A DNA stretch of 64,000 bases from Kiritimatiellia bacterium (GTDB lineage: Bacteria; Verrucomicrobiota; Kiritimatiellia; SLAD01), in the NCBI GenBank assembly GCA_007134735.1, contig SLKG01000006.1, forward strand, positions 3,817-67,816. Reading direction: 5' to 3'. Below the pieces are notes generated by a model. It did not search any database and was not told where the DNA came from. It saw only the letters and a program-made list of their open reading frames with translations. The position numbers were made by a program, and so were the translations under genes. Below are positions 31,221 through 52,477 of this stretch, piece by piece (within the stretch, counting starts at the first letter, position 1; each line of letters begins with the position of its first letter).

Positions 31221-31687
31221 AATCCCTCAAATGGCGCACGATTTTGATGCATGCGGTTGTGTACCCTGTTCCGTGTTGTCCATGCGCAGCAAACCGGTAG
31301 GTCAGGCATTCCTGCCTGACCGGGTCGGGCAAGAATGCCCGACCTACTTTATGAACATGGTATCCGACCAAGGCTCCTCAAGAGCCGTCTGGATGTACCA
31401 TAGACGCATGGTTCCCGGTGTCAATGCTGTCGTCATCCGCCCGTCTGATGGGTTGTCCTGGAATCCCGCGCCGGCGTGAAGAGGCTTTCAACCGCGCCCA
31501 TCCGCTGGAGAGGCCTCGACGGCGCCGATGCGGCGGGGTTCGGGACGAAGTCGAGAGGTCTCCAACCTGGCCGATGAACCGGACAGGCCCCCTTCCGACC
31601 CGACGGATTGCCTTGCATAAAGGACTATTGTTCGCCACATTCAAACTGAACGCATTTTCTTTAAATGCTGAACACACATCGGACATC

Positions 31688-32938: not shown

Positions 32939-33304
32939 GAAATCCCAGCCCAAGACGGAAGGAACATCTTCTATCGGGCGATGCCCCATCGTGCCGTGTG
33001 GGTGGGTCGCGCTCGGCGAGGCCGCCGACCCTCCCGAAGATGGAGGGTCACGCTCCGCGTGACCCGGACGCGCGGAAGCGCGTCCCTCCATTATTCAAGA
33101 AACTGGCTTATCCGGCGGGAGGGACCGCGCGAGCCAGGGCGAAGCCGCAGGCGAAGACCGGGCCTCGCGGTCCTGAAGATATAGTGGAGAAAAAGAGGAG
33201 CAAGGGAGTGCATTTCCCGGAAATGTCGCACTTTTTGTCTCGTAACTGTTGAACTTGGGCTAGTCGGGCATTAAATGAACATCTCTTGCAGGGCGGCGGT
33301 TTTT

Positions 33305-34357
33305 TCAATCCGCCGTATGCGGTTCTTCGCCAAAATCTTTTCCCGGTCGGAACAGTTCCGCCCAACCCGCCAACCCATAGCTGACGTGCATGATCGGAAT
33401 CAGCAGAAAAATCAGCAGGTCCGCCACACGCCGCGTTTCGCGGACCATGACAAGCGTGATTCCAAGATCCACGAGCGCGTAGGCCGCGAGCACACCCCAT
33501 AACACGAGAGGGAAAACCGGGTGAAAGAACGAACCCACTCCGGCCACAACCAGGGTGGCGACCCACAGGGCGGGAATCAATGTCGTAGGTTCCAGCTCCA
33601 CGCCGGTGCGTACAAGACGAATGCGCGTGGACCCGTATCCGAATATCTGTCGCCAGAACCGCACCAGTGAGGTGCGGGGATAATGATACACGTAAGCCTT
33701 CGGCAGGAAAATAAGGCGATATCCTTTCTTCTGCGTACGATAGGAGGTCACCAATTCCTCGCCCGGCCAGAAATCGGGATCGAATCCGTCCACCTCTTCC
33801 AGAACCGATTTGCGAAAGGCCATGTTGCATCCGATGATCTTCGACCAGTTAATAAAGGTGTCGTCTCCCTCCCCGCGACGATAACGCCAGGCCACGTATC
33901 CGACGGCCGGAGACGAAAGCGCCAATCCGGCCAGCCGGGAGAACAGATTCACATCCGGAGGGGTGAGGCTGGGACCACTGACCAACGCAACATCCGGGCT
34001 GTCGAATCCGTCCACGATGCGCACGGGCCAATCCGGCGCCACCGTCACGTCATCATCCAGAAAGGCAATCCGTTCCGCCCGGGCCGCGCGCCATCCGGTA
34101 TTCTTCTTTTTGCTGGAATCCCCTGTTTCGTATGACACATCCAGATGCCGTATCCGGGCATGTGTTTCGCACAATGCCCGGAGCTGACGGCGCACATCCG
34201 CGTCCGCGATGCGACCGACCGCCAATACTTCAATGCGGTCAAAACCCTCGGCCGCCACAAGCGATTGAATCGTCCGGATCAGCATGGGGCGTCCGAGCGT
34301 GGGAATAACCACCGAAAGGGCGGGATGTTCCGGATGCGGTTCTATATCGGCGGTCAT
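33305..34357 (-). CDS. Glycosyltransferase family 2 with C-terminal TM helices
   Basis: LSVVIPTLGRP...FLDDDV (DXD) GT-A motifs; three C-terminal TM helices. Confidence 0.75.
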   Translation of the reverse strand: MTADIEPHPEHPALSVVIPTLGRPMLIRTIQSLVAAEGFDRIEVLAVGRIADADVRRQLRALCETHARIRHLDVSYETGDSSKKKNTGWRAARAERIAFLDDDVTVAPDWPVRIVDGFDSPDVALVSGPSLTPPDVNLFSRLAGLALSSPAVGYVAWRYRRGEGDDTFINWSKIIGCNMAFRKSVLEEVDGFDPDFWPGEELVTSYRTQKKGYRLIFLPKAYVYHYPRTSLVRFWRQIFGYGSTRIRLVRTGVELEPTTLIPALWVATLVVAGVGSFFHPVFPLVLWGVLAAYALVDLGITLVMVRETRRVADLLIFLLIPIMHVSYGLAGWAELFRPGKDFGEEPHTAD

Positions 34358-34803
34358 AATGAACGTAAATCCTGCTTATTTTCCAGACAGGCATCAAGAT
34401 ACTGACGCGATGAGAGAATCGGAATGCCTTTAAATAGTCTGATATCCAGAAGATGTCGATCCCCGTTGATTATGACATCCGGACGAACCGTTTCAGCGCA
34501 AGCAAGAACCATGTCGTCATCCGGATCATCGGCCACTATGCATTTCTCCAACATGGAGGCTTCTACAAGAAGCGCATGATGGCATATCCATTCGATAATC
34601 TCAACGGGCGTGATCGAAGATTTGGCCAGTGCACGCTTGAACTTCGGACGCTGTATCACTTGCGAAATCTCTTCCAAAATCTCGTTTATCACAAACAACC
34701 GGTCACGGTTGTCTTCAACGCGTTCGAGAATTTGTCCCGGTGGCCCATCTTTCCAAAGCAAACCGGATATCAGGCAATTGGAATCGCAAACGATCCTACT
34801 CAA
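34354..34803 (-). CDS. PIN-domain (VapC-like) toxin
   Basis: Acidic PIN residues (VCDSN, EILEEI, DDPDDD, INGDRHLL). The TTG start at 34803 is preceded by AGGGGAG. The stop overlaps the GT2 start codon (ATGA). Confidence 0.6.
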   Translation of the reverse strand: MSRIVCDSNCLISGLLWKDGPPGQILERVEDNRDRLFVINEILEEISQVIQRPKFKRALAKSSITPVEIIEWICHHALLVEASMLEKCIVADDPDDDMVLACAETVRPDVIINGDRHLLDIRLFKGIPILSSRQYLDACLENKQDLRSL

Positions 34804-35131
34804 AGGAACTCCCCTGCTTCTTCTTTTCCGCCCGAACCCTTGCAATAATTCGGGACAGATCACGGGGAGTAACATCCTTGCTCGCGCCCGACTGCTCAAA
34901 ACGATCCTGTAGATCCCTCAACGCTGGGACGGGATCCGTTTGCCTGTGGTCCTTCTCCATGACGCCATAGGATACTCGCGGTTCGCCAATGCGTCCGTAT
35001 TGCCCAACAGGCACAATTCGAAACACCGGCTTGGAACTCCTCATCACGATAAATTCCTCTCCGGCCTCCGCACGCCTGGCAATATCCGAAAGATCACTGC
35101 GGATATCCTTCATGGCAATTATCTTTTCCAT
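34796..35131 (-). CDS. Phd/YefM-family antitoxin
   Basis: N-terminus MEKIIAMKDIRSDLSDIARRAEAGEEFIVMRSSKPVFRIVPV matches the prevent-host-death fold; overlaps the PIN gene by 8 bp. Confidence 0.6.
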   Translation of the reverse strand: MEKIIAMKDIRSDLSDIARRAEAGEEFIVMRSSKPVFRIVPVGQYGRIGEPRVSYGVMEKDHRQTDPVPALRDLQDRFEQSGASKDVTPRDLSRIIARVRAEKKKQGSSFE

Positions 35132-35332
35132 ATGTTATTCCATACGCTTTTCCATGCGTATTGTCAATTCATCATCCTTTTATCGGGTTTTCCTCAAATA
35201 ACCCATCAATCACTTCCTGTCTTCCCTTTGGCTCCTTCGCGCCTTCCCTCTTCCGGGCTCATCACGCACTCCGGCGGTCGCATCCGTCTTCGTTCCGTCC
35301 CATAGCGCGGGCCGAAACTACGCCGGGACATG

Positions 35333-35530
35333 GCGCGACCGCCCTACCCTGCCCGCGATTGGTCCAGAACCGGTAGGGCGGGGCCGCCTTGTCACGGCGT
35401 AGCTTCCCAGCGAAGCCGGACGGACCCGCCGGAACATGGGTGGTGCAACACCGGATTCATCTGCCTCGGCGGTCGCAGCGCGACCGCCCTACCCTTCCCG
35501 CAATGGGTCCAAAGCCGGCGGGGCCGCCGG
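35333..35530. repeat. Two adjacent copies of a dispersed REP-like palindromic element (gcgcgaccgccctaccc...ggtagggcgg)
   Basis: Copies at roughly 35333-35389 and 35461-35530. A third copy at 50581-50656 shares at least 35 bp identically (ggcggtcgcagcgcgaccgccctaccctgcccg) plus flanking similarity. Confidence 0.6.
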
Positions 35531-35687
35531 TACATGGGTTGCAAAAGACCGGATCGACGGCCCCCCACCCCGAATTTCCTCTTTGCGCCTTTGCGTTCTC
35601 TTCTTCCGACTCATCACGAAGTCCGGGCTTCGCAAGCGAAGCCCCTACATCCATGATCCTCTTCTCGTTCTTCCCATCGCCATGGCG

Positions 35688-38174
35688 CTATTCTGCGGCG
35701 CGCCCATTTGATCGCGCACGGACAAGACCGGTCAACGCCGCCACACAGACAAGCAGACCCGCGATCTGTACCAGGAACGATCCCCGGGGCGGGGCGTACC
35801 GCAGGATGACATCGTGCTGGCCTTCCGTCAGGAAGATTCCCTGGCTGATGTAGTCCACCCGGCGCACGGGCGTCGGATAACCATCGACCGTGGCCTTCCA
35901 ATGAGGATCGTATTTCTCCGCAATCCGCAGAATGGACAGGGCCTCGCTCGATACGCTCAGGTGCATGTAGCCCGGGCGATAGGCGTGTACCCGCACCGCC
36001 CCGACGTCGCCTGAGTCGGTCGACGAAGGCAAATCGTCCGCCCATTCCGGAGCCACCATCACGCGATCGAGCGCTGGAATCTGTTGCCGGGCATGCCTGC
36101 GCAATGCTTGAATATCCTCGGCGACTTCCCAACCGCCGACAACGGCAAAGCGGGGTGTCCGCGACGTCATCCGCAAAACAATGTGCCGGCCCGGCTCTTC
36201 GCCCGTCCCAATTCGAACGACCGGGGCTCCATTCTCCTCCACTATGTTGTACGCTTTCACCAACTCAAACTTATCCCGCAATTGCGCATCGCCTTGAATC
36301 TGGCTCCATAATTCAGCCGGCCCCAACACAAACCGGACGGCGCCCAATTCCCACAGGCGAACCAGGTTCCGTCCGACCTCGTTCAAATAGACCTGGTAAT
36401 CATCGGGCATTCTCGGCATCTGCGCCACATTGATGGTCTTGATGCCGTGATACGGAAACAGGTAGGTCAACCATTGATTATAGAAACCTTCCTGGGAAAT
36501 CAGCGCGACGCGGTGATGGGGAGCCGTTTTCAGCACCTGTACGATCTCGTGACGATCGAGCATGCGGGCCGGCATGGTCTGCACATAGTGCCGTGCCAGA
36601 AACCATACGTCGAAGACCACCAGGAAGACGACGCCCCAGGCGATATACGGAAAAGCGTTACCGAGGCGTGACCGCATGAAAGACAACACATAAATCCCGG
36701 CCGCGGCGATCCCCGTCATGACGGCCGCATGCCCCAGTGCCCGGATCCGATTGCCCGCAATGGTTTCGGCCCATGCCCCCCATCCTTCCTGTGCAAAGCG
36801 ATCCGTCAACACGTCCCACGCCGCCAGGGAAGCCAGCATCCAGACCAGCAACAAGCCCGCGATCACGGCACACACCATCGCGAAGGGCTTGACGACGGCA
36901 TCGGGCACCGGCTGCCCCCGGATACTCCCCGTTCCCCTCAGCACATGATGCAATCCGTACGCCGCCATGAGACCCAGCGCCCACTGAAACACCTGCAGGA
37001 ACTTGTTTGGATTGCGAATCGAGGAAACAACGGGCAACTGGTAAAACAAGGCATACAGCGGAAAGTATTTCCCGAACGACAGAAGCAGGGCCAGCACGAG
37101 GACAACCGACCAGAAGCGGGTGTCGCCGTGAAACGCCTCGCCGGACCGCCTCCGTCGCCATGCGATCATCCCGGCGAGGAAGGCAAAGGCCACGGGAATC
37201 GATCCGATATACTGATTCTCCAATTTGAAATTGCGGAAACCCCGGCCGGTTTCCTCCCAACCCGCCGAGCGGCCCATGCGCCCCACATACGGTCCGGCCG
37301 GTTCGCCGGACCGCCAACCCGTGAAGCCGGGCGCGATGAAATCGATGCTTTCCTCGGGCGGCCAGCTCCACTGGGTCACGTACTCCCATTGTTCGGCGGG
37401 ATCATCCGCCTGAACGGCCGCCACGCCAACCACGGCCGTTTGGTACCCCGTCCAAATCGGATGGAACGCCAGCAGGAACGCCACGACCACCAGGGGCGCC
37501 AGGGTGCGCGCCAACGGGAGCCAGGACCATCCGTACCGACGCACAAAAGCGTGGATGGCATAGGGGCCCAGCGCCAATGAAAAGAACAACGCCACGTCAG
37601 CCTGCTCCAGGAACATCGCCCCCATGGCGCCGCCCGCAAGCACGGCGTACGGCAAGGCCCGTGTATGCACCGCTTTCTCCACCAACCACAGGTAGATCGC
37701 GGCCCACATAATGATGCCGAACTTGCCGATGTGGCCGGCATACACCAGCGTAAAGTTGCTGCCCACCCAGTAGACGGTCAACGCACCCAACGCGCACGGC
37801 GCCCACCCCAACCCGCGCTGACGCAGGAAGAGGATAAGAAAGAACGACCCCATCACCACATCAAACGCGTTGATCCAATTGTTAAAAAAGACCGGGGGCA
37901 ACAGAAGCAGCAACAGGTTGGTACTGCCTACATAAGCGGGCGCCGGATAACCCATCAATTCCTTGTCCTGCCATCCCCCCAGCCAGGAACCGGGCATGCG
38001 GTCTTTTCCGGCCGCGATCTGTCCGACATTGTCATCCGTCGTAAACAGGATATTCCCCGGAGGGATCACCTCGCGAAACACCAACAACGACAATAACAGG
38101 AACGCCAGTAGAACATACGCCGCCTGACGCCCGGAGCTGCCGGCAACCGTTGTCTGTATGGTGCGATCCGACAT
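35688..38174 (-). CDS. Large polytopic membrane protein (at least 12 TM), YfhO/GT-C-like; function unknown
   Basis: 828 aa; dense hydrophobic helices along most of the length, then a soluble C-terminal roughly 250 aa. Last gene of the co-directional glycosylation operon. Confidence 0.55.
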   Translation of the reverse strand: MSDRTIQTTVAGSSGRQAAYVLLAFLLLSLLVFREVIPPGNILFTTDDNVGQIAAGKDRMPGSWLGGWQDKELMGYPAPAYVGSTNLLLLLLPPVFFNNWINAFDVVMGSFFLILFLRQRGLGWAPCALGALTVYWVGSNFTLVYAGHIGKFGIIMWAAIYLWLVEKAVHTRALPYAVLAGGAMGAMFLEQADVALFFSLALGPYAIHAFVRRYGWSWLPLARTLAPLVVVAFLLAFHPIWTGYQTAVVGVAAVQADDPAEQWEYVTQWSWPPEESIDFIAPGFTGWRSGEPAGPYVGRMGRSAGWEETGRGFRNFKLENQYIGSIPVAFAFLAGMIAWRRRRSGEAFHGDTRFWSVVLVLALLLSFGKYFPLYALFYQLPVVSSIRNPNKFLQVFQWALGLMAAYGLHHVLRGTGSIRGQPVPDAVVKPFAMVCAVIAGLLLVWMLASLAAWDVLTDRFAQEGWGAWAETIAGNRIRALGHAAVMTGIAAAGIYVLSFMRSRLGNAFPYIAWGVVFLVVFDVWFLARHYVQTMPARMLDRHEIVQVLKTAPHHRVALISQEGFYNQWLTYLFPYHGIKTINVAQMPRMPDDYQVYLNEVGRNLVRLWELGAVRFVLGPAELWSQIQGDAQLRDKFELVKAYNIVEENGAPVVRIGTGEEPGRHIVLRMTSRTPRFAVVGGWEVAEDIQALRRHARQQIPALDRVMVAPEWADDLPSSTDSGDVGAVRVHAYRPGYMHLSVSSEALSILRIAEKYDPHWKATVDGYPTPVRRVDYISQGIFLTEGQHDVILRYAPPRGSFLVQIAGLLVCVAALTGLVRARSNGRAAE

Positions 38175-38256
38175 CCTTATCCGCCGCCTTTCCTGTAATG
38201 ATTTTCAAGGGGAGCATCCGGGTGACGCCCCGGTCATCTCGACCTATGATCCCCCG

Positions 38257-39282
38257 TCACAAATTACCCGTTTCAATCTGTTCGCGCACCCACGGGATGA
38301 CTTCGTCGAGAATGCCGGACAATGGGGTTTCCGCGACAAATCCGAGCACGTTACGGGCCTTCGCGCAATCCGGAACACGTTTTCGGACATCGTACTCATA
38401 CGCCGGATCCGATACGTGCCGGAACGGCTTTCCCGGATTGATTTTTTCCCAAATCATCTGTGCCAGTTCCAATACCGTCGTCGACGTTTCCGTTGATAAA
38501 TTAAAGTCCTCGTTGAGGGCCTCGGGATGCTCGATGGCCAGTCGAATGCCGCGGGCCAGATCGCCGCCGTAGGTATAATGACGAACCTGGCGGCCGTCCC
38601 CCAGAATATGCAGGGGATCCTGGCCCTTGATCACCTTTTGAACAAGATCCGGCACCACATGGCTCATGGCCAGTCGAATATTACCGGATACCACTTCCTT
38701 GTCGGTAAGCGCGCGCTGTTCGCCGATGCCCACACAATTGAAAGGCCTTACGATGGTGTACGGGAGTTCGTATTGCTGCCTCGCACCCCGCGCGAAATAT
38801 TCGGTGGCCAGTTTCTGGAATCCATATGTGCTTTTGGGGGGAGGCGACGTCAATTCCGCGCCTTCGGGTGTGGGGTATACCTCCGTGGATTCAAACACCA
38901 TGCTGGAACTCATCATCGTAATCTTCTTCAGCCGGCCCTTGCGAAAGGCGCGGATGGCGGCGTCGAACGTGGACGCCGTAATCCGTTCGTTTTCGGCCAA
39001 CAGATCGTATGCGAATTCATGAAAATAGCTGATTCCGCCGATCATGGCCGCTCCGGCCAGCAGGTGATCGCACTCCGCCAGCAATTCATCCAGCAGGGCC
39101 CCGTCCTTGGCATCGCCCTGCACGAACGTGTAGTGGGGATGATCGTCATAGGACTTCACCACGGGGCCGTATTTGGAGTAGTTATCAATGCCGATCACGC
39201 GCCATCCGTGATCAAGCAATTCCTGGGCGACATACCCCCCGATAAAACCGGCCGAGCCGGTAATAAGAATGGTCTGGTTCAT
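38257..39282 (-). CDS. NAD-dependent epimerase/dehydratase (extended SDR; UDP-sugar 4-epimerase/decarboxylase type)
   Basis: Start placed at MNQTILITGSAGFIGGYV (Rossmann GxxGxxG). The catalytic region STYGFQK fits the SDR YxxxK motif. Confidence 0.8.
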   Translation of the reverse strand: MNQTILITGSAGFIGGYVAQELLDHGWRVIGIDNYSKYGPVVKSYDDHPHYTFVQGDAKDGALLDELLAECDHLLAGAAMIGGISYFHEFAYDLLAENERITASTFDAAIRAFRKGRLKKITMMSSSMVFESTEVYPTPEGAELTSPPPKSTYGFQKLATEYFARGARQQYELPYTIVRPFNCVGIGEQRALTDKEVVSGNIRLAMSHVVPDLVQKVIKGQDPLHILGDGRQVRHYTYGGDLARGIRLAIEHPEALNEDFNLSTETSTTVLELAQMIWEKINPGKPFRHVSDPAYEYDVRKRVPDCAKARNVLGFVAETPLSGILDEVIPWVREQIETGNL

Positions 39283-39283
39283 A

Positions 39284-40519
39284 TTACGATCCTTTTGGCC
39301 TTTTCGAACGTCCGGGCCGGATTTCGAGATCCGGTTCATGCAGAATCCCCCACACATCAACCACGGGTTTTTCGATCTTCAACGCACGATATTCCCGATG
39401 GGGCACGCACAATATCAGGACATCCGATTCGTCCAGCACCGCCTTGACCGGCCGGGCGTCTTCGAGATAGGGATCGTGATACACCACCCGCGCCCCTCCG
39501 AATTCCAGCCCTTTCTTTACCCGATAACTCAATGATTCCCGTGTATCGTCATTGTCCGCCTTGAAGGCCATGCCGAGCAAACCGGCCGTCCTTCCCCATA
39601 AGGATGAACCGAGCGCGGCCGCCGCCTTTTCCACCACAAAGGTCGCCAACCCCTCGTTGGCCAGCATGGCCGTGTGCCCCAGGTGAAAGCGGTGCCGGTA
39701 ATAACTGGCCAGCTGCATGGTATCCTTGAACAGGCATGGCCCCCCGGTAAAGCCGGGCGCCTTGAAGCTGTCGGCGCGGGGATATTCATGGCGAATCGCC
39801 TTGTATATCCGGTGAAAGTCAATCCCGTTGGTTTCGGCAATCATGTAGAATTCGTTGGCAATGGCAAACTCGAGATACCGCCAAGTGTTCGTCATGAGCT
39901 TCGCCAATTCCGCTTCCAGCGGCGTCAGGCGCACAATGGCCGGAGCCAATTCGGCGAAGAGTTCGTACGCCGCTTCAAAACTGTCCTCATCAAACGCCGC
40001 CACAATCTGGGGCAACGACTCAATTTCCTTCAACGCCTGTCCCTGCGCTACCCGCTCCGGGCAGAAGGCCAATCGCGTCTTCCGGTTCATCGCGCGCAAT
40101 TTCTTGTGAATGAACTCCATCGTGCCCGGATACAAGGTCGACCGCATCACGATCAGCGAATGGTCCGCAAACAAGTCGTGATATTGATCGATGACACCAA
40201 GCAATTCCGACAATTCGGGATTGAGATGTTCGTCGACCGGCGTCCCCGTGACAAACACATACACATCGGCTTCCCGACACGCACCGGGGTCCGTAACCGC
40301 CGTCATACCGGCGGTCAGCGCTTCGCCGAGTTGAGTCTCACCGCCCTCGTCAAGAAACGGCATCCGGCCGGCATTGACCATCTCCACCGCTCGCGCATCC
40401 ACATCGAGGAGCTTCGTGGTTGCGCCGGCCAGGGCAAACTTGATGCCGAGCGGAAGCCCCACGTGACCGCAACCCCCGATAATTACGATTTTCTTGCTGT
40501 CCAACAAATGATCACTCAT
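39284..40519 (-). CDS. Nucleotide-sugar dehydrogenase (UDP-glucose/GDP-mannose dehydrogenase family; WecC/WbpA/TviB-like)
   Basis: N-terminal KKIVIIGGCGHVGLPLG Rossmann fold and catalytic GFTGGPCLFKD. Its stop abuts the epimerase start (1-bp spacer). Confidence 0.85.
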   Translation of the reverse strand: MSDHLLDSKKIVIIGGCGHVGLPLGIKFALAGATTKLLDVDARAVEMVNAGRMPFLDEGGETQLGEALTAGMTAVTDPGACREADVYVFVTGTPVDEHLNPELSELLGVIDQYHDLFADHSLIVMRSTLYPGTMEFIHKKLRAMNRKTRLAFCPERVAQGQALKEIESLPQIVAAFDEDSFEAAYELFAELAPAIVRLTPLEAELAKLMTNTWRYLEFAIANEFYMIAETNGIDFHRIYKAIRHEYPRADSFKAPGFTGGPCLFKDTMQLASYYRHRFHLGHTAMLANEGLATFVVEKAAAALGSSLWGRTAGLLGMAFKADNDDTRESLSYRVKKGLEFGGARVVYHDPYLEDARPVKAVLDESDVLILCVPHREYRALKIEKPVVDVWGILHEPDLEIRPGRSKRPKGS

Positions 40520-43049: not shown

Positions 43050-43175
43050 TGGTGGATTATCGGCATTCCACGGCAGGATGCAACAGGAAGATCAATAACG
43101 GGAAGCGAAACCGCCGCGTCGGCCCACGTCGGGACCCGTCCGGGCGTGATCAGGCCAAAAGGGATTCGGCCTTCA

Positions 43176-45257: not shown

Positions 45258-45332
45258 ATCGATATACTCAACGCATAAAGAGGGTATTTCAATCCTTTTG
45301 CCGGGCCGCTCCCGTGCGGGATGCAAAAACCC

Positions 45333-46517
45333 TCACCTCCGCGCGTCATCCAGTACCTGCCGGCACACCCCCTGGTAGCGCTCCACCCAGGCGTCGAGAT
45401 GATACCGGTCGCGTTGTTCAAGAAACGACTGCCGGACCGCTTTCAGGCGCTCGGGTTCATTGAAAAACTCCCCGATCCGGCCGGCCAGAGCCGGCGCATC
45501 GTTCATCGGGACCAATAGCCGGGTATCGACCGGATCCAATAATTCACGCATCACGGGAATACGGGTGGACAAGAGCGGCAGTCCCGCCGAGATGCACTCG
45601 AGCACTACGTTCGGATAGTAGCTGACCCCGACAGACGCGTGATAAGGGATCAGAAAAAGATCATGCCGGCTCATTTCCTCCTCCACGGAAACCGCCCCCT
45701 TGACCGTGATATATTCCTGTAAGCCGTACTTCTGAACGAGACGCCAAAAGTGCTTCAGATTCCCCCGATCGGAAAACGCGAAGGTCATGGTAAAGGACAA
45801 CCGGCCTTTGAGAAGCGCCAACGCTTTCAATATCATATCCACTCCCTTGGCCGGGGTATAATGCCCGATATACAGAAGCCTGTTGGCACCTGTATTTTGA
45901 TCGTGATCGGTCTTTCCTGCCTCCTTTACTCCGTTGATCATCTGTTCGATCCGGTCTCCGGATACGGAACGGGCCAGTTGCTCGCGTTGTACCCGACTCG
46001 ACACCAGGATGCGCCGATACACGTCCGCCCCGCGTGCATACAGGGTACGCAGAAGGAACGAATTCAGCAGAATATGAGGAAGCATATCGCGAACCAGCCG
46101 CCAACGGCCGGGCCGAAAGAAGGACGCCACCTCCCCCGCGCTTACATACGGCTGCCAGACCGTGACCATGACGGGAACCGATACCGTTCGAGCTACGCGC
46201 CGCAGGAGAACGTACTCAAGGCAAAACCCCACATGCAGATGAATCAGGTCATAATCCCCCGGATTCATCTCCTCGATTTTCATCATCAATCTCCGGATAT
46301 TGAGCAACAGGGCCTTCCCGGATCCATAGGGATTGTATGAGGAGTAGCTTTCGATCCGGAATGGTGCGTCCGACGGATACCCGGGGGGCAACGCGCCGGG
46401 TATCAGAAGCGTCACATCGGCCTTGGGGGAAACGGCTTCATAGAGGTGCACGATATTCTTGCTGATGGCTTCGTGCAAATCGGGCTTGAACGTGGTTGTA
46501 GCGGCCAATATTTTCAC
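45333..46517 (-). CDS. Glycosyltransferase family 4 (GT-B)
   Basis: 394 aa, GT4 C-terminal core (IGHYTPAKGVD...LPLLSTRIPVMRELL); 4-bp overlap with the downstream GT2. Confidence 0.75.
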   Translation of the reverse strand: MKILAATTTFKPDLHEAISKNIVHLYEAVSPKADVTLLIPGALPPGYPSDAPFRIESYSSYNPYGSGKALLLNIRRLMMKIEEMNPGDYDLIHLHVGFCLEYVLLRRVARTVSVPVMVTVWQPYVSAGEVASFFRPGRWRLVRDMLPHILLNSFLLRTLYARGADVYRRILVSSRVQREQLARSVSGDRIEQMINGVKEAGKTDHDQNTGANRLLYIGHYTPAKGVDMILKALALLKGRLSFTMTFAFSDRGNLKHFWRLVQKYGLQEYITVKGAVSVEEEMSRHDLFLIPYHASVGVSYYPNVVLECISAGLPLLSTRIPVMRELLDPVDTRLLVPMNDAPALAGRIGEFFNEPERLKAVRQSFLEQRDRYHLDAWVERYQGVCRQVLDDARR

Positions 46518-47521
46518 GGGCCACGATGTCCGTCGTCGCGCTTCGGCTTTTCAGGACGCAATAAGTACAGGGGGCGTTTTTTGGATTCCTCGAAAATACG
46601 GCTCACGTATTGCCCGATAACGCCCATGCAGATCAGTTGGATTCCGCCGATAATCAGAATCAGCGCCACAATGGTGGCCCAACCGGGCACATAATCATCC
46701 GGTCGCACAATACGGGCCCAGATGGTTCTCATGGCGCGCAAACCGCCAAGCCCGGCCACCAGGATACCCGCGACGGTCACCCACCGGAGTGGTGTTCCTG
46801 AAAATGAGGTCATGGCATCCCAGGCCAGGTTGGCCGATTTCCAGACCGGATATTTTGTTTTGCCCGCGTGTCTCGGCGCACGCTCGTAGTACACGGCCGC
46901 CTGCCGGTATCCCACCCAACACGTCAGTCCGCGCACAAACCGATGCAGTTCCCGCACGTCCCGCAGGGCATCCACAACGCACCGGTCCACCAGCCGGAAA
47001 TCGCCCGCATCAAGCGGTACCTCCATTTTCACCATGGCACGAAATATCTTGTAGAAGTTGTGGGCCAGGAATTTCTTGAGCCAGGACTCGCCGGACCGGC
47101 TTTTCCGCACGGCGTACACTACTTCGTACCCCTCGCGCCACTTGGCCATCAGTTCGGGAATGACTTCGGGCGGATCCTGCAGATCCGCGTCGATAATGAC
47201 CACCGCATCGCCCTCCGCGTGGTCCATTCCGGCCGTGATGGCAATTTGATGGCCGAAATTCCGGGAAAGTTGCAGCAACCGTACGCGGGAATCCTTTTTC
47301 GCCGTGTCCGCGACCCAGGACGCGGAAGCGTCCGTGCTTCCGTCATCGATAAACAATATCTGCAGGTCTTCGGGTTCCCCGTCCAGCACCCCGACAAGGC
47401 GGTCATACAGGACGGGAAGATTCTCCTCCTCGTTGAGGAACGGAACCACCACCGAAACCCGTCGTTGTGAGCGTTGTGCATTCACTGCGTGGAGTGTGCC
47501 AGAGAGCGTGTCGCACCTCAA
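46514..47521 (-). CDS. Polyprenyl-phosphate glycosyltransferase (GT2; ArnC/GtrB/Dpm1-like) with two C-terminal TM helices
   Basis: VSVVVPFLNEEENL, IDDGSTD and DADLQDPPE motifs; C-terminal membrane hairpin as in GtrB/ArnC. Confidence 0.8.
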   Translation of the reverse strand: MRCDTLSGTLHAVNAQRSQRRVSVVVPFLNEEENLPVLYDRLVGVLDGEPEDLQILFIDDGSTDASASWVADTAKKDSRVRLLQLSRNFGHQIAITAGMDHAEGDAVVIIDADLQDPPEVIPELMAKWREGYEVVYAVRKSRSGESWLKKFLAHNFYKIFRAMVKMEVPLDAGDFRLVDRCVVDALRDVRELHRFVRGLTCWVGYRQAAVYYERAPRHAGKTKYPVWKSANLAWDAMTSFSGTPLRWVTVAGILVAGLGGLRAMRTIWARIVRPDDYVPGWATIVALILIIGGIQLICMGVIGQYVSRIFEESKKRPLYLLRPEKPKRDDGHRGP

Positions 47522-47524
47522 TAC

Positions 47525-49660
47525 CTATTGAGGATATTCGGCTCGGCCTTCCGGTATCCATTGTATATCCCAGAGGACAATTCCCTGAACGTGGCGGCGA
47601 TGATCCGGCAGGCGTAGCCGGACATCGGTCACGCCGGGCGAAAGATCATCCAGCGGAATGACCGTCTCGATCAGCCGGCCGGCCGGGTGTGTCCCGCTAT
47701 ATTGAACCACGCCGTCCATCACTACGTGCACATCCGCTTGCCGGTCGGCCGCTCCCATCCAGGCCGCCATGAGCGCCAGGCGTCCGGATACGGGATGCGG
47801 GTGGGGGTTCTCGATTTGAAAAACGGACTCCGCCCCGGGCATCGCGCGATAGTACAACGTTTCCCGGGGCGACACCGCTTGTTGCTGAATGTGCCATCCA
47901 TCAAAAGAGAACAGTACGTCATAACCGGTTTCCAACGCCTTTCTCCGCAGGTCCTCCCGGGTATTGTAGTAAATATCCATACGATAAGACGTATCCGAAA
48001 GGTCCTTGTAGGGCTCACTGGGGTGAATGCCCAGCTCGATCAACCGGCGAAGCGGTTCGTTGTCGATAATCACATGATTACGGAAATGCGAAGGCGGCCA
48101 TGTCCAGAGTTCTCCGGGTGTATCCCAGCCCGTATGGCCCAATGCGACGAAAACAGTTTCCGGAAATCGACGAATGAAATCCATCTGGCGTTTCTGAAGA
48201 GGCTCTCGTTCGCCGCTTTTATGCACATAAGGCGCAATCGGGACCAGGCCGGGCACCGGATGATAACCGCCGATAAACCGGTATTGGAAGGCACTCTCGA
48301 CCAGATAAGGCGTTCCCGGTTCAACATGTTCATTCAACCAGGCGGCCACACCGGCGTAATTTTCGTCCTTATGCTCCAAGCTCCAGTACATCGGCAAATA
48401 GACAAGGATATGGGGCCCAACACAAAGCCCCGCCAGCACGGACACCGCCGCAACCCGGTTCAGGGTTATGAACCGGGCGAACATACGCACAAGCAGACCG
48501 CCCCCATACCATATTCCCTGTGCGATAATCAGGTAAAACACCACAATCAAGGGCGAAAAATAGCGGGCCGAAAGATACTGCGTATTCATGGTCGCTATGG
48601 CCAGCAGTACGAGCGAAACCACGGCCGATCCCCCGATCAATATGCCCCGGGTATCCGACGCGGAACGGGACTCCACAAGCAGTCCCGTCAAACCCGTCAG
48701 AAAGAGCACCCACGCCAACACCGCGAACGGGGGATATTCACCCAGAAACATCTTGTTCAGAGCATCGTTCAGAATCCATACGAGGGCATACTCCCCGCCC
48801 GCACCGATATGCGCCTCATTGTTCAACATGAAGTGAATCAGGTACGGGGAAACCAATAGAAACGCACACCCCGAAGCCAGCGCCGAAACAAATCGCGCAC
48901 GCCGCACGCCGGGCTCCGCTTTCATGAATAGCCCGGCCAGCCACAACGCGCCGGCCGCCGCCGCCCAGCCGGCCACGGCAACCACGGCGCCCAGGTGCGA
49001 TAACGCCATACCGGCGAAACACACAACCGTCAGCAGGAAATACCGGCGTCCGCCGCCGGTATAGAGACGAAGCCATGCATACCATCCCCACGCCGCGAAA
49101 AAGAGCACGTACGCATAACAATACGCCTCCCGCGAATAGTAGACGGGGAAAAAGAAAACCGCCATGAAGACCGCCGCCACCCAGGCCGCGCCCGGATGCA
49201 GCGCCCGGCGGGCCGCGCCATATATACCGGGCACGGCCAACGCCCCGATCACCGCCATCGGAAAGCGCATGATACCCGGACGGTTGATAACATCCGTAAA
49301 CCCGATCTCTTCCAGTAGCGCGATATAGATGTTCTGTACAGCCCCGGCCAGGGGCATTTGCCCCATGCTGATGAGATGGGTCCAATAGCGGGAAAACGCC
49401 TCCACCGGCCCGGCATCCGGCGCGGCCAGAATGGAGACGAAGATCATCTCATCCTGCCACAGAGAAGCCCGCCCCAGCCAAACCAGGCGCAACACCAAGG
49501 CAACCGCCGTCAAAAACAGCAAGGCAAATCGCTCCCGGCGGGACCCGTTCCCGGAAGAAGGGCTCTCCACGGAATGCCCCGGCGCTACCCGTTTCCCCTT
49601 GTTGCCTGTCTTGTCCTGTTTCTTTTTGGACATACAACGACTGCTCCTCTTACGGATCAT
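47525..49660 (-). CDS. GT-C fold membrane glycosyltransferase (ArnT / PMT-like)
   Basis: Start placed at MIRKRSS, giving an ATGA overlap with the upstream GT2 stop. Lys-rich N-terminus, then about 12 TM helices and a soluble C-terminal domain. Confidence 0.6.
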   Translation of the reverse strand: MIRKRSSRCMSKKKQDKTGNKGKRVAPGHSVESPSSGNGSRRERFALLFLTAVALVLRLVWLGRASLWQDEMIFVSILAAPDAGPVEAFSRYWTHLISMGQMPLAGAVQNIYIALLEEIGFTDVINRPGIMRFPMAVIGALAVPGIYGAARRALHPGAAWVAAVFMAVFFFPVYYSREAYCYAYVLFFAAWGWYAWLRLYTGGGRRYFLLTVVCFAGMALSHLGAVVAVAGWAAAAGALWLAGLFMKAEPGVRRARFVSALASGCAFLLVSPYLIHFMLNNEAHIGAGGEYALVWILNDALNKMFLGEYPPFAVLAWVLFLTGLTGLLVESRSASDTRGILIGGSAVVSLVLLAIATMNTQYLSARYFSPLIVVFYLIIAQGIWYGGGLLVRMFARFITLNRVAAVSVLAGLCVGPHILVYLPMYWSLEHKDENYAGVAAWLNEHVEPGTPYLVESAFQYRFIGGYHPVPGLVPIAPYVHKSGEREPLQKRQMDFIRRFPETVFVALGHTGWDTPGELWTWPPSHFRNHVIIDNEPLRRLIELGIHPSEPYKDLSDTSYRMDIYYNTREDLRRKALETGYDVLFSFDGWHIQQQAVSPRETLYYRAMPGAESVFQIENPHPHPVSGRLALMAAWMGAADRQADVHVVMDGVVQYSGTHPAGRLIETVIPLDDLSPGVTDVRLRLPDHRRHVQGIVLWDIQWIPEGRAEYPQ

Positions 49661-50424
49661 GACGGGCGATGAATAATGGCTCCCAGCGTGCGATCGTAAA
49701 CCGCCACCACCCATCGAAACGGCGAATACAAAAGCCGCAGCCGACAGACGGCAAGAAACATCTCCCACGAGGCGCGGGGTATGCGTAATTGTGACCCTTC
49801 AACATCATGCCACTCCGTTGGATATTCAACCAGGCGACACTGCGCCCGCCGAAGCTGGAAAAGCAGATCAACATCAAACGCCCACCGGGTCACACCCAGT
49901 CGTGGTAGAACGGCATGCATCGCTTCGCGGCGGACCAACTTGGCGCCGCATTGTGTGTCCGAAAGTTTCAATTTAAAGAGAAACCGGACCAGTTTATTGA
50001 AGATACGGGAAGCAATACGGCGTTTCAAGGGTTGCGGGGGTTCCACCACTGCCCCCTCAATCCAACGGGATGCGATGGCGACGTCCGCCTCTCCCATGCG
50101 GTCCACCAAATCCTGAAACGCCTTCGGCGGCGTAGCCCCATCGGCATCCACAAAGCCGATCAATTCCCCTTGCGCCGCCCGGGCGCCGAGCATGATCGCG
50201 CCGCCCTTTCCAATGGGCTTGGGCTCTACGAGAACACGCACCTGGGAAAACCGTTTTTCAAAATCACGCGCAAGGGCCTCCGTACGATCCATCGAGCCGT
50301 TGACCACCACGATCAATTCCACCGCATCGCCGTATCGCTCCGCAAAATGATCCGTATAGGCGCTGAGCATCCGACCGATCCTCGCCTCTTCGTTATAGGC
50401 CGGTATGACGATGGAGAGCTTCAT
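49657..50424 (-). CDS. Glycosyltransferase family 2, Dpm1/ArnC-like polyprenyl-phosphate sugar synthase (soluble/monotopic form)
   Basis: MKLSIVIPAYNEEARI..., VVVNGSMDRT and FVDADGATPP (DXD) motifs. Confidence 0.8.
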   Translation of the reverse strand: MKLSIVIPAYNEEARIGRMLSAYTDHFAERYGDAVELIVVVNGSMDRTEALARDFEKRFSQVRVLVEPKPIGKGGAIMLGARAAQGELIGFVDADGATPPKAFQDLVDRMGEADVAIASRWIEGAVVEPPQPLKRRIASRIFNKLVRFLFKLKLSDTQCGAKLVRREAMHAVLPRLGVTRWAFDVDLLFQLRRAQCRLVEYPTEWHDVEGSQLRIPRASWEMFLAVCRLRLLYSPFRWVVAVYDRTLGAIIHRPS

Positions 50425-50580
50425 GTCATGAAGACCGATGCGGGTTGCAGGATGCGGGACAAAAGCACATCTTGTTGGTGAAGTGTAATCCTGGAGCCAA
50501 GGTGGGACCGCTTTGTCCCGTCGCAGACTTTACGAAGGCGGACGGACACGCCGGAGCATGAGGAGCAGATGAGCCGGATC

Positions 50581-50656
50581 CTGCTTCCCGGCGGTCGCAG
50601 CGCGACCGCCCTACCCTGCCCGTGCTTGATTTGGGCCGGTAGGGCGGACCCGCCGG
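50581..50656. repeat. Copy of the REP-like palindromic element, upstream of the glycosylation operon
   Basis: ctgcttcccggcggtcgcagcgcgaccgccctaccctgcccgtgcttgatttgggccggtagggcggacccgccgg; stem ccgccctacc / ggtagggcgg. Confidence 0.6.
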
Positions 50657-50866
50657 AGCTCTCACGGCGTGTGTAGCCTCCGCGCACGACTTTCAAACAG
50701 GTCATCCCGGGCAGAGCGGAGCGCCGGCGAGTGATATCCAGTCCATCGAACAGCCGGAGAGGCCTCGACTCCGCCCGGCATGACAAACGCTTCACTTGTT
50801 GGTCAATATTGAGCGCACCCGAAAGTCGTCCTGTAACCCGGAACCTGAAACCGGCAACCTCCTTTC

Positions 50867-52477
50867 TCACTTCCTCAACTCCAAAAGTTTCAATGTCGTT
50901 CCCGCCTGTCCGAAATGTGGAATAGCGTGGACCTCCCGGTAGCGATCCCGGACAGCGGCCCATAGCGCGTCCTGTTCATCCGTCGATAGTTCTTTCACCT
51001 CGGGCGATGCAATGGCTAGACCGTATCCGCTGAAGGCGGCCACGGGGGCATCCGTCGTTTGAATCAATTCCATCATCATGTCCCGGTTCAGCACCCCCAA
51101 ACGTTCCGCCCGTTCACGCGGCCAATCCGGGAAATAGGAAAAAGGCCCCATTTCTAAACCGTACGGCACAGCGCGGCCGGCTTCGACGGCCAGATACAGA
51201 TCCTGCGTCAGAAGCCGGTCATCCGGCGCGGTCCGTTCGGCAATCCACGCGCCCGCGGCCCGCAATTGACCCAGATCCGACACGTCCTTGAGCCGCCACC
51301 AGATCCGGTCGCGCTCACGAACCGCCCAGTCCTGGTTGAGGGGCGAGGAGAATGCGGCGAACACGCTCGCCGCGAAAACAACGAGCACCGCCGTATGCAG
51401 GACCGGCGCCGTTAATGAACCGTCACCGTCCTGTTCATGCCGCGAACGAACCAGCCGGTTCACCAGTCCCGCCGCCAACGCGGCGCTCACTACCGGCATG
51501 ATCAGAACCTGGTAATCGTCATACGGAAACGGGGCCGCCAGATGAACAAAGGTTACCGCGCCCGCGGCCGACCAGAGCAGGACCGGGAACCGGTTCCCTC
51601 CATCTTCGACATCCTTCGCCGGAACCCGGCGACCGACCCACCACCACGTTACCAGAAAGAGCCCTACGCCGAACGCCACGAAGTAGGCCTGCACAAAGCG
51701 GGAAAGGAAACCGGCCTTGAACACGAGCGCCGCAAGTACGCTGTCCGTCCAGCGCAGGGTGTGATATTCGATCAACCAGAAACGGGTTGACTCCGCATCC
51801 AGCAGAATAAAAGGGGTGAACACCAGCATCAACGTGATGAGACTTCCGAGCGCAAAGGCCGCTGAAAGCCGGTAACGCGCGTGATACCCGTCCACGAGCA
51901 GATACAGGAACGCCAACGGAAGTAGTACGCCCGCGGACAGCCGCACCCCCGCCGCAAGCGCGAGCACGATACCCGCCCCGGCGGCCGCCCATACTCCGCG
52001 GCGGGTTCCCACGTGGGTCAGCACATACACGCCTGCGACGATAAGCAATCCGGACAGAGAATACGTCTTTACCACCGTCGTGAAGTAACTGTGATACACG
52101 TTGCAGGCGAGCAACACGAAGGCCACGAGGGCGGCCGCGCTTTTCCACGGCCGGGGCGTCAGACGCGCGGCCAACGCCGCGGCCAGCAAGGTCGCGGCCA
52201 TCCCCAGCACGGCCGTAAACACACGGCCGCCGCCCAGGCCCCATCGTTCCACGACCGGCCGGGCCGCCGCGTAGACGTACGGCATCACAGGCCCCTGCGA
52301 AAAGGCCGTGTCCCGATACAACGCGTGGCCCTCGGACACCCGGTGCGCCGCATAGAGATACCATCCCTCATCCTGGTTCAGCTCGCCCCAGAACAAATTG
52401 GCGGCATTCAACACCAGGCCGATGACCACGGCCGCAAGCCCGATTGAGATGAACCATGATCTTTTCAAAAACCACAC
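50867..52477 (-). CDS. GT-C fold membrane glycosyltransferase (ArnT / PMT-like)
   Basis: 536 aa; N-terminal TM followed by loop GELNQDEGWYLYAAHRVSEGHALYRD (a DE-containing first periplasmic loop as in PMT/ArnT); about 11 TM helices. Confidence 0.6.
   Translation of the reverse strand: MWFLKRSWFISIGLAAVVIGLVLNAANLFWGELNQDEGWYLYAAHRVSEGHALYRDTAFSQGPVMPYVYAAARPVVERWGLGGGRVFTAVLGMAATLLAAALAARLTPRPWKSAAALVAFVLLACNVYHSYFTTVVKTYSLSGLLIVAGVYVLTHVGTRRGVWAAAGAGIVLALAAGVRLSAGVLLPLAFLYLLVDGYHARYRLSAAFALGSLITLMLVFTPFILLDAESTRFWLIEYHTLRWTDSVLAALVFKAGFLSRFVQAYFVAFGVGLFLVTWWWVGRRVPAKDVEDGGNRFPVLLWSAAGAVTFVHLAAPFPYDDYQVLIMPVVSAALAAGLVNRLVRSRHEQDGDGSLTAPVLHTAVLVVFAASVFAAFSSPLNQDWAVRERDRIWWRLKDVSDLGQLRAAGAWIAERTAPDDRLLTQDLYLAVEAGRAVPYGLEMGPFSYFPDWPRERAERLGVLNRDMMMELIQTTDAPVAAFSGYGLAIASPEVKELSTDEQDALWAAVRDRYREVHAIPHFGQAGTTLKLLELRK

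Follow-up and report, generated by a model that had tools for sequence, protein, structure and literature searches.

A mosaic locus of Kiritimatiellia, probably for transmembrane glycosylation, joins a class-wide core with genome-specific inserts

What does a long run of co-directional genes for glycosyltransferases (GTs) and large membrane proteins build in a Kiritimatiellia bacterium, and do these genes form one system? The run occupies the minus strand at positions 33305-52477 of a stretch of 64,000 nucleotides (hereafter the window) from contig SLKG01000006.1 (assembly GCA_007134735.1). A sequence-only reading had presented it as one 19-kb operon, in which three ArnT/PMT-like GT-C enzymes are paired with Dpm1/ArnC-like polyprenyl-phosphate sugar synthases, and as a candidate for an undescribed periplasmic glycosylation system. 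We followed this up in silico with Pfam, NCBIfam and PDB sequence searches, structure prediction, homolog sets and synteny, including 95 loci fetched for comparison (designated L0xx). The enzymology was upheld: domain searches, folds and homologs bring out lipid-linked-sugar synthases, a flippase-family protein, GT-C proteins and nucleotide-sugar genes. The single 19-kb unit was not borne out, since synteny with locus L008 and with other loci reveals a conserved core interrupted by genome-specific inserts. We consider it probable that this core and its genome-specific additions make up a machinery for multi-component transmembrane (periplasmic) glycosylation, with an envelope glycan or lipopolysaccharide (LPS) as its probable target.

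The core genes and their conserved neighbours are located in the window as follows:

50867..52468, minus strand: GTC1, 533-aa ArnT/PMT-like GT-C glycosyltransferase
49657..50424, minus strand: GT2a, 255-aa GT2 resembling Dpm1 and dolichol-phosphate mannose synthases (DPMS), putative polyprenyl-phosphate hexose synthase
41766..43049, minus strand: MOP-like, 427-aa polytopic membrane protein, candidate flippase for the GT2a product
35688..38174, minus strand: YfhO-like, 828-aa membrane protein, probable fourth GT-C
33305..34357, minus strand: GT2c, 350-aa membrane-anchored GT2, Glyco_trans_2_3/GT21-like
31574..32938, plus strand: divergent GT4, conserved core neighbour
28920..31220, minus strand: GH172 (DUF2961) protein with a lipoprotein-like signal peptide (..VFSGC), conserved core neighbour

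A scan of GTDB species genomes recovered GTC1 relatives in at least 552 of them, and the counts below were taken from the 80 best loci. A GT2a ortholog stands directly downstream of GTC1 in 48 of the 73 loci with sufficient sequence; in 42 of 51 loci, the stop of GTC1 overlaps the start of GT2a by 4 nt; and a MOP gene comes directly after GT2a in 31 of 67, mostly overlapping it or within about 25 nt. GTC1, GT2a and MOP form a class-wide Kiritimatiellia triad: a GT2 synthase, a flippase candidate and a GT-C protein co-occur in synteny across at least 31 genomes, with their genes overlapping or fused. In-frame GT2a::MOP fusions of 639-694 aa were found as eight independent 50%-identity cluster representatives (P0333, P0344, P0345, P0350, P0357, P0377, P0403 and P0405), in which the first 250 residues share 50-64% identity with GT2a and the C-terminal part 29-36% with the MOP-like protein. 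An in-frame fusion of this kind, 682 aa long, lies at 12513-14561 of L041.

The MOP-like protein can be assigned to the MOP superfamily only transitively, via its homologs, as a probable divergent member. An exhaustive HMMER search gave 2642 relatives; among 40 sampled homologs, Polysacc_synt was matched by 11, Polysacc_synt_3 by 5 and MatE by 4, and the family profile retrieved MATE/MOP transporters as its best PDB relatives (PfMATE, E 0.02). Its hydropathy peaks number about 9-12, with about 12-14 transmembrane (TM) helices expected for the superfamily. The Wzx-like flippase of the sequence-only reading thus stands as a flippase-family protein, its homologs matching Polysacc_synt and MatE, but a classical Wzx has become less likely: because MOP is fused to GT2a orthologs, these fused sequences make a flippase for polyprenyl-monophosphate sugar more likely than the classical carrier of undecaprenyl-diphosphate (Und-PP) oligosaccharide. 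Two other arrangements were observed among the relatives, a fusion in reverse order (MOP, then GT2) in P0348 and a MOP::GT4 fusion in P0404.

Between GT2a and the MOP-like gene, the window carries an insert of four accessory genes, two of which encode further large membrane proteins:

47525..49633, minus strand: GTC2, 702-aa GT-C with a C-terminal beta-sandwich resembling a carbohydrate-binding module (CBM), at about residues 575-695 (47549-47911)
46514..47452, minus strand: GT2b, 312-aa GtrB/ArnC/PgfS-type polyprenyl-phosphate glycosyltransferase with a C-terminal membrane segment
45333..46517, minus strand: GT4a, cytoplasmic GT-B glycosyltransferase (GT4; Glycos_transf_1 3.4e-17)
43176..45326, minus strand: GTC3, GTC2 paralog, likely start M24 (45257)

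Are the large membrane proteins GT-C enzymes at all? Against Pfam PMT_2 (PF13231, gathering threshold 26.1 bits), GTC1, GTC2 and GTC3 score 18.3, 26.8 and 24.1 bits, respectively, and about half of the GTC2 homologs have a precomputed PMT_2 match. PF02366 (PMT) and the NCBIfam ArnT models match none of the three proteins, the NCBIfam Agl23 model matches GTC2 and GTC3 weakly (17-18 bits), and the family profiles of GTC1, GTC2 and the YfhO-like protein retrieved no GT-C chain among PDB sequences. Sequence matches being weak or missing, identities were therefore set by structure prediction and homolog sets. The predicted GTC1 model is confident (91.6; 0.92) and its top 21 fold matches are all GT-C proteins, with Pmt4 at 23.6 and ArnT at 23.5 with 415 residues aligned. 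The GTC2 model is also confident (82; 0.78), and its top 20 fold matches are again all GT-C: ALG12 (20.3), STT3B (20.2), AglB (19.9), Pmt4 (19.3) and ArnT (18.8), together with PglB, AftA, AftB and AftD. A MIR-like domain is not seen in either model, and no MIR, TPR or other protein-binding domain was found in GTC1, GTC2 or GTC3.

Directly after TM1, GTC1 carries the motif NQDEGWYLY, in which D33-E34 (52367-52372) is invariant in 40 sequences, and GTC2 the motif LWQDEM, in which D61-E62 (49448-49453) is invariant in 19; the two Asp-Glu motifs align in a profile-profile comparison (hhalign, 89.6% probability). GTC3 is 26% identical to GTC2 over 596 aa (BLASTP, E 3e-23), and its Asp after TM1 (GADNMEF) is kept in three orthologs. 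The GT-C assignment of the sequence-only reading is confirmed by the fold matches of GTC1 and GTC2 and by GTC3 as a GTC2 paralog that keeps the Asp. Transporters, named beforehand as the refuting outcome, are ruled out, because structure prediction gives GTC1 and GTC2 a GT-C fold with only GT-C proteins as top matches, alongside the DE motif and the paralogy of GTC3. As judged from the predicted models, GTC1 and GTC2 are members of the GT-C superfamily by fold, and their likeness to ArnT (GT83) and PMT (GT39) is one of fold only, without sequence membership. Only their adjacency to the GtrB-like and Dpm1-like GT2 genes suggests a polyprenyl-(di)phosphate-sugar donor for the GT-C proteins.

The count of three GT-C enzymes holds for the three proteins named, but four is the more probable number, because the YfhO-like protein probably belongs to the GT-C enzymes as well. 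Against Pfam YfhO (PF09586), it reaches 19.5 bits itself, short of the gathering threshold of 28.5, with a match confined to the 58 C-terminal residues. We treat it as a divergent YfhO relative because 25 of 38 sampled homologs match Pfam YfhO at E≤1e-3 (best 1.1e-11). The family has at least 423 proteins in Kiritimatiellia, one homolog is named ‘YfhO family protein’ by NCBI, and an invariant Asp (D47) follows TM1 within the conserved motif FTTDDN. In the literature, YfhO proteins count as transferases with a GT-C fold (PMC5836110, PMC8035078).

The polyprenyl-phosphate sugar synthase-type GT2 enzymes that had been read beside the GT-C genes are present. GT2b is, by sequence, a full-length GtrB/ArnC homolog, including the GT-A domain and the C-terminal anchor: it matches GtrB (5EKP) at 5.2e-87 over residues 2-298 and ArnC at 2.4e-46, and in NCBIfam it covers the full PgfS (271 bits) and ArnC (182 bits) models, both below their equivalog cut-offs. 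GT2a has a Glycos_transf_2 match in Pfam (8e-31), and its nearest solved relatives are the DPMS of P. furiosus (4.7e-13), ArnC (1e-10) and GtrB (2e-9), over the catalytic domain only. GT2c is of another type as far as its matches indicate; its best NCBIfam matches are MftF-like, EpsD and HpnI, and its PDB search gave no GtrB, ArnC or DPMS match.

How far does the cluster hold together in other genomes? L008, from a distant member of the Kiritimatiellaceae, is the one fully syntenic reference locus. It contains the whole core in the order and orientation of the window, at 35-57% identity (GTC1-GT2a-[one gene]-MOP-YfhO-methyltransferase-GT2c-GT4(divergent)-GH172). L024, L032 and L046 repeat the MOP, GH172, YfhO and GT2c part, and GT2c orthologs adjoin YfhO in these three loci and in L008 at 50-53% identity. 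In most genomes YfhO and GT2c stand elsewhere, and only 11 of 80 loci have them no more than 10 kb from GTC1. Relative to this core, the window has four inserts: a repeat element between GTC1 and GT2a, GTC2-GT2b-GT4a-GTC3 between GT2a and MOP, GT4b-dehydrogenase-SDR (short-chain dehydrogenase/reductase) between MOP and YfhO, and repeats with a Phd/PIN pair in the position of the methyltransferase. GT4b-dehydrogenase-epimerase and Phd/PIN are absent from L008. The locus is a mosaic of a class-wide core and genome-specific inserts, of which the following have yet to be listed:

50425..50866: 442-bp gap with a palindromic repeat like repetitive extragenic palindromic (REP) elements, arms 50600-50615 and 50638-50653, splitting the GTC1/GT2a junction
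40516..41769, minus strand: GT4b, cytoplasmic GT4 with Pfam GT4 domains, insert relative to the L008 core
39284..40519, minus strand: nucleoside diphosphate (NDP)-sugar 6-dehydrogenase, for a hexuronic or N-acetylhexosaminuronic acid donor
38257..39282, minus strand: extended-SDR NDP-sugar epimerase, dehydratase or decarboxylase
35132..35687: 556-bp gap with at least two copies of the same REP-like repeat (35314-35406, 35478-35524)
34796-35131 and 34354-34803, minus strand: Phd antitoxin and PIN_3 toxin, type II toxin-antitoxin insert

The GTC2-GT2b-GT4a-GTC3-type cassette is found in none of the 80 GTC1 loci. It turns up again, with other sugar genes, on two unrelated contigs from metagenomes: L010 has GTC2 (42%), GT2b (64%), a GT2, dTDP-sugar genes, methyltransferases and GTC3 (45%), and L097 has GTC2 (41%), Phd/PIN, GT2b (40%), a GT2, a methyltransferase and GTC3 (30%). 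Two GT-C paralogs bracketing a GtrB and a variable sugar payload are a pattern typical of surface-glycan diversification. GTC2 homologs number 20 at E≤1e-5 in a word-indexed search of limited sensitivity, and they occur in several contexts. In the closer relatives L093 and L094, GTC2 comes directly after GT2a, in the order M20-GTC1-GT2a-GTC2. In L096 (1053-9874), a GTC2-family gene heads a co-directional run with PfkB-kinase, KdsB, KdsA, LptC, LptA-like and LptB genes, a context which hints that the family acts on LPS. In L009 (12235-16440) and L095 (12189-16394), GTC2 homologs are convergent to an operon of GT2, SIS-domain isomerase, GHMP kinase, nucleotidyltransferase and SDR genes, the GT2 being 33% identical to GT2a. 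In its gene content, this operon is similar to a pathway of the GDP-heptose type, which suggests a heptose-like donor linked to lipid.

A different GT-C, of 1038-1066 aa with TMEM260_N and TPR domains, adjoins a small GT2 in L006 and L007 (13268-16468), L009 (16464-19580) and L095 (16418-19534). This GT2 (250-262 aa) is only 26-33% identical to GT2a; a UbiA-family prenyltransferase also adjoins the TMEM260_N GT-C in L009 and L095, always near a peptide deformylase. The TMEM260_N/TPR module could be a separate module for protein-directed or pentofuranose-type glycosylation.

The remaining domain calls of the sequence-only reading were borne out by Pfam, NCBIfam and PDB searches: three GT2, two GT4 and the divergent GT4, the NDP-sugar 6-dehydrogenase, the extended-SDR epimerase, Phd, PIN_3 and DUF2961/GH172. 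The dehydrogenase matches TIGR03026 above cut-off (252 bits) and, in PDB, a UDP-N-acetylmannosaminuronic acid (UDP-ManNAcA) dehydrogenase (2e-35), UDP-Glc dehydrogenase and Cap5O. The extended SDR matches Pfam Epimerase (2.4e-39) and both GalE-type (8e-25) and UXS-type (1e-17) proteins in PDB. The divergent GT4 (Glycos_transf_1 8.6e-28) occupies the same position and orientation in L008. The GH172 protein has DUF2961 at 5.8e-45 in Pfam and GH172 domains in precomputed calls, its signal being read from the sequence, and its gene is syntenic with YfhO, GT2c and GT4 genes in L008 and likewise in L024, L032 and L046. Both flanking genes are thus confirmed by Pfam and by synteny in L008. Retained next to genes for glycan synthesis, this hydrolase may have a role in trimming or remodelling their product.

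The Phd/PIN genes overlap by 8 nt and, by their domain matches, correspond to a type II toxin-antitoxin pair (PhdYeFM 29.9 bits against a cut-off of 29.8; PIN_3 56.1 against 27; TIGR01552 and TIGR00305 above cut-offs), standing where L008 has its methyltransferase. Phd/PIN or PIN genes recur in or beside variable glycan cassettes, in L097 (5132-5506 and 7728-8392), L009 (5734-6168) and L095 (5574-6128), as would be expected if the cassettes were mobile or variable islands.

The palindromic repeat of the two long gaps has the core GCGCGACCGCCCTACC...GGTAGGGCGG. Because GCGCGACCGCCCTACC repeats in both gaps, with four matches against 0.04 expected by chance and all of them confined to these two intergenic gaps of the cluster, the REP element of the sequence-only reading is real. 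Among the 95 fetched loci, the repeat was found only in the source organism's own contigs. An Arg-rich 180-aa open reading frame (ORF) at 50421-50963 spans the repeat-bearing 442-bp gap and is annotated as a gene on a JGI contig (L003); with no Pfam family match, we treated it as spurious. A 373-aa ORF at 31970-33091, antisense to the divergent GT4 gene, was treated likewise.

The gene array itself was read partly correctly. The ORFs lie on the minus strand where they had been placed, but the count of fifteen genes resolves into 14 genes and one repeat element. As to the ATGA overlaps, those at 41766, 40516 and 34354 are 4-nt overlaps as described, GT4b having ATGA at both ends; the overlap at 46514 is real but GTGA, the GT4a GTG start overlapping the GT2b stop by 4 nt; and the one at 49657 exists only with the upstream GTC2 ATG, the start in public gene calls lying 27 nt further downstream and leaving a 23-nt gap to GT2a. 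Short overlaps among the co-directional genes number five (four of 4 nt and that of Phd/PIN), and gaps of 442, 126, 82 and 556 bp occur within the array.

Housekeeping genes surround the cluster: ligA, ftsQAZ and an ArgE/DapE-type deacylase on one flank, and a pseudouridine synthase, tRNA synthetases and DAHP synthase on the other. The GC content is uniform over the window, and an Rfam scan of the whole window gave no match. The best homologs of the window proteins come from Kiritimatiellia, Pontiellaceae and metagenome-assembled genomes (MAGs) labelled ‘Verrucomicrobiota’ or ‘Lentisphaerae’, and contigs matching the window are present in two MAGs from soda-lake sediment (GCA_003567595.1, PWZD01000160.1; GCA_003559975.1, PWJR01000055.1). 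The ArgE/DapE-family M20 deacylase gene (52582-53781) lies on the same strand directly upstream of GTC1, a position conserved in 15 of 80 loci and in L094; it may be linked to the locus, as a sugar deacetylase like LgmC or ArnD, or be plain housekeeping.

From the folds, family relationships, synteny and fusions observed here, we infer a scheme for the donor lipid, the sugars, the flipping and the acceptor. At the cytoplasmic face, GT2a, soluble or peripheral, would charge polyprenyl phosphate with a hexose taken from a nucleotide sugar; the MOP-family protein would bring this polyprenyl-monophosphate sugar across to the periplasmic face; and GTC1, with its presumed catalytic Asp-Glu motif after TM1, would transfer the sugar to an envelope acceptor, as the YfhO-like protein probably would also. 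In an accessory line, the GtrB-type GT2b would make a second lipid-linked sugar, to be used by GTC2 and GTC3, which might instead use the GT2a product. GT4a, GT4b, GT2c, the divergent GT4 and the dehydrogenase/SDR genes would provide or assemble sugars at the cytoplasmic side, a uronic acid among them. The acceptor is the weakest step of this scheme. For GTC2 it is argued to be a glycan because of the CBM-like periplasmic beta-sandwich, and overall an envelope glycoconjugate (LPS core, lipid A or another surface glycan) is most likely; the LPS genes nearby in relatives, the variability of the sugar payloads and the CBM-like domain speak for it over protein. LPS genes are present in Kiritimatiella, a canonical diderm (PMC5148204).

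Several observations weigh against such a coupled machinery. GT2a has no TM helix in a hydropathy scan and no specific NCBIfam or PDB match that would establish a lipid-phosphate acceptor; GpgS-type enzymes, which use soluble acceptors, are among its matches, and GT2 enzymes of this size also use soluble acceptors. The MOP-like protein has no Pfam match even at E 10, and it could, less likely, be a classical Wzx for Und-PP-oligosaccharide after all. The YfhO-like profile has no similarity to the GTC2 profile (hhalign). Pmt4 matches the GTC1 fold as well as ArnT does, and therefore the fold cannot tell whether the acceptor is a protein or else a lipid or glycan. The locus lacks an initiating phosphoglycosyltransferase, a Wzy, a ligase and any obvious acceptor gene. 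The 442-bp and 556-bp gaps interrupt the array, and consensus scans found promoter-like and terminator-like sites at background level, with no enrichment, and are uninformative on transcription units.

How well do other explanations account for these genes? A narrower form of the envelope hypothesis is that the locus serves lipid A or LPS-core modification specifically, as do ArnC/ArnT, Francisella Flm and Rhizobium RgtA-E. GT2a or GT2b would then make a polyprenyl-phosphate sugar, possibly a uronic acid derived by the dehydrogenase and the epimerase, and the GT-C proteins would modify lipid A phosphates or core sugars, thus tuning the charge of the outer membrane in an alkaline, saline habitat. 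We regard this sub-case as rather unlikely, even if its class-wide conservation is like that of a housekeeping envelope function, a GTC2 homolog heads a Kdo/Lpt operon and the MAG comes from soda-lake sediment. The dehydrogenase and SDR pair also recalls the supply of UDP-galacturonic acid reportedly used by the Rgt system. However, at sequence level nothing matched ArnT, Rgt or any GT-C in PDB, the fold scores of Pmt4, ALG12 and AglB are as good as that of ArnT, the CBM-like domain in GTC2 is more in keeping with a polysaccharide than with lipid A, and the dehydrogenase and SDR inserts adjoin a GT4 rather than a GT2 synthase.

Protein O-glycosylation, as by PMT, Pgf or TMEM260 systems, would have the GT-C proteins transfer sugars from polyprenyl-phosphate to Ser/Thr of secreted or membrane proteins. 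PMT_2 is indeed the only Pfam match of the GT-C proteins, PgfS, from the streptococcal Pgf protein-glycosylation system, is the best NCBIfam model for GT2b, and other Kiritimatiellia have the small GT2 adjoining a TMEM260_N-TPR GT-C. Nevertheless, the PMT_2 scores are marginal and PF02366 is not matched, the likeness to PgfS reflects a shared GtrB fold, GtrB itself scoring higher, GTC1, GTC2 and GTC3 have no MIR, TPR or other protein-binding domain, and GTC2 carries the CBM-like domain, so that we find this explanation improbable.

A conventional Wzx-dependent polysaccharide locus is still harder to reconcile with the data, and we give it little credence. Here the MOP-like protein would flip an Und-PP-oligosaccharide made by the GT4 and GT2 enzymes, and the GT-C proteins would be polymerase- or ligase-like or decorate side chains. 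Distant MOP homologs do match Polysacc_synt/Wzx families, and several Leloir glycosyltransferases and sugar-nucleotide genes are present; but the locus has no initiating phosphoglycosyltransferase, Wzy, Wzz or export gene, MOP is coupled or fused to the Dpm1-like GT2a rather than to GT4 genes, and the large proteins match GT-Cs acting on lipid mono- and diphosphates, not Wzy or O-antigen-ligase folds.

That there is no single system, only a chance juxtaposition of independent envelope-glycan genes on one strand, would agree with the mosaic of inserts absent from relatives, with the interruption by two repeat-bearing gaps and a toxin-antitoxin pair, and with the rarity of loci (11 of 80) that have YfhO and GT2c near GTC1, yet it seems to us highly improbable in view of the core order kept in L008 (GTC1-GT2a-MOP-YfhO-GT2c-GT4(divergent)-GH172, at 35-57% identity) and of the overlapping stop and start codons and fusions that tie the triad together.

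If the envelope glycosylation machinery proposed above is real, the entire class Kiritimatiellia carries a conserved, uncharacterised periplasmic glycosylation pathway. Kiritimatiellia are important degraders of sulfated marine polysaccharides. More tentatively, and at somewhat less than even chances, GTC1-GT2a-MOP could be a lineage-defining envelope pathway of the class, with MOP as a dedicated polyprenyl-monophosphate hexose flippase and with GTC1, GTC2/3 and the YfhO clade as new GT-C families. The GT-C proteins stand outside curated families, with no above-threshold Pfam or NCBIfam match except the marginal PMT_2 match of GTC2, and with no solved sequence relative. The synthase::flippase fusions would offer a direct biochemical handle on the long-standing question of how lipid-monophosphate sugars such as undecaprenyl-phosphate (Und-P)-sugar and dolichol-phosphate mannose (Dol-P-Man) cross membranes, and natural GT2a::MOP fusions are attractive for tests of lipid-monophosphate-sugar flipping in vitro. 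The rare GTC2-GtrB-X-GTC3 cassette with swappable sugar genes looks like a surface-antigen diversification module, which could explain strain-level envelope variation in uncultured Kiritimatiellia.

As a type of system, the locus is less novel than had been thought. Multi-component transmembrane glycosylation, including a Wzx-type flippase, is already known from GacIJKL and AglD/R/S, and the statement that PMT-like systems are poorly characterised outside Actinobacteria and enterobacterial lipid A modification was exaggerated (PMC8035078, PMC3871713). The known scheme has a GT2 that charges polyprenyl phosphate at the cytoplasmic face, a flippase that moves the lipid-linked monosaccharide and a GT-C that transfers it in the periplasm (PMC8035078). 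The ArnC/ArnT and GtrA/B/C systems share this donor logic; GT2b is a full-length GtrB/ArnC homolog by its matches, and GTC1 is ArnT-like in size and in predicted fold. Unlike in these systems, the flippase candidate is here a polytopic MOP rather than a small GtrA or ArnE/F, the GT-C proteins of the locus have no sequence-level match to ArnT or GtrC, and the genes of the 4-amino-4-deoxy-L-arabinose (Ara4N) pathway (ArnA, ArnB, ArnD) are not at the locus.

Arrays of several GT-C enzymes sharing a donor synthase have precedents. In Rhizobium leguminosarum, several ArnT-like GT-Cs (RgtA-E) reportedly share one polyprenyl-phosphate galacturonic acid synthase, and mycobacterial assembly of phosphatidylinositol mannosides, lipomannan and lipoarabinomannan uses Ppm1 with PimE/Mpt/Emb/Aft GT-C arrays that share the donor synthase. 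The proteins of the present locus have no sequence membership in either group and belong to a different phylum. The CsbB-GtcA-YfhO systems of Bacillus, Listeria and Staphylococcus, which glycosylate lipoteichoic and wall teichoic acids, resemble the locus in that a YfhO-family protein is clustered with polyprenyl-phosphate sugar synthases (PMC5836110, PMC8035078). However, the YfhO-like protein described here is very divergent, its own Pfam score lying below threshold, the nearest GT2, GT2c, is not CsbB/GtrB-like, and teichoic acids are not found in diderms. GT2c was considered as a CsbB-like partner of the YfhO-like protein and was rejected, having no GtrB, ArnC or DPMS match.

The closest parallels are the systems in which a GT-A without TM helices works with a Wzx-type flippase, documented for GacI/J/K/L (PMC8035078; bioRxiv 10.1101/180810) and AglD/AglR/AglS (PMC3871713). 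GacIJKL matches the triad part for part: a TM-less GT-A makes Und-P-sugar, a Wzx-type protein is the proposed flippase and a GT-C transfers the sugar to an outer glycan (PMC8035078; bioRxiv 10.1101/180810). It differs in serving a Gram-positive wall polysaccharide; no GacJ-like small membrane partner was identified at the locus, the GT-C proteins of the two systems have no detectable sequence relationship, and the triad is class-wide, translationally coupled and sometimes fused, unlike GacIJKL. In Haloferax volcanii, AglD is a Dol-P-Man synthase (GT2), a Wzx-like protein is proposed to act as, or to assist, the Dol-P-Man flippase, and a Dol-P-Man-dependent mannosyltransferase completes the set (PMC3871713). 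AglD/R/S is archaeal, adds the final mannose of the S-layer N-glycan to a protein-bound N-glycan acceptor and has aglD unlinked to the cluster (PMC3871713); the only sequence link to it is the weak match of GTC2 and GTC3 to the Agl23 model (17-18 bits). Because the scheme of GT2, flippase and GT-C is textbook knowledge, the present finding extends a known principle; the novelty lies in the uncharacterised families of GT-C proteins, in a Dpm1-like synthase that is coupled class-wide to a MOP protein and occasionally fused with it, and in the rare two-GT-C cassette.

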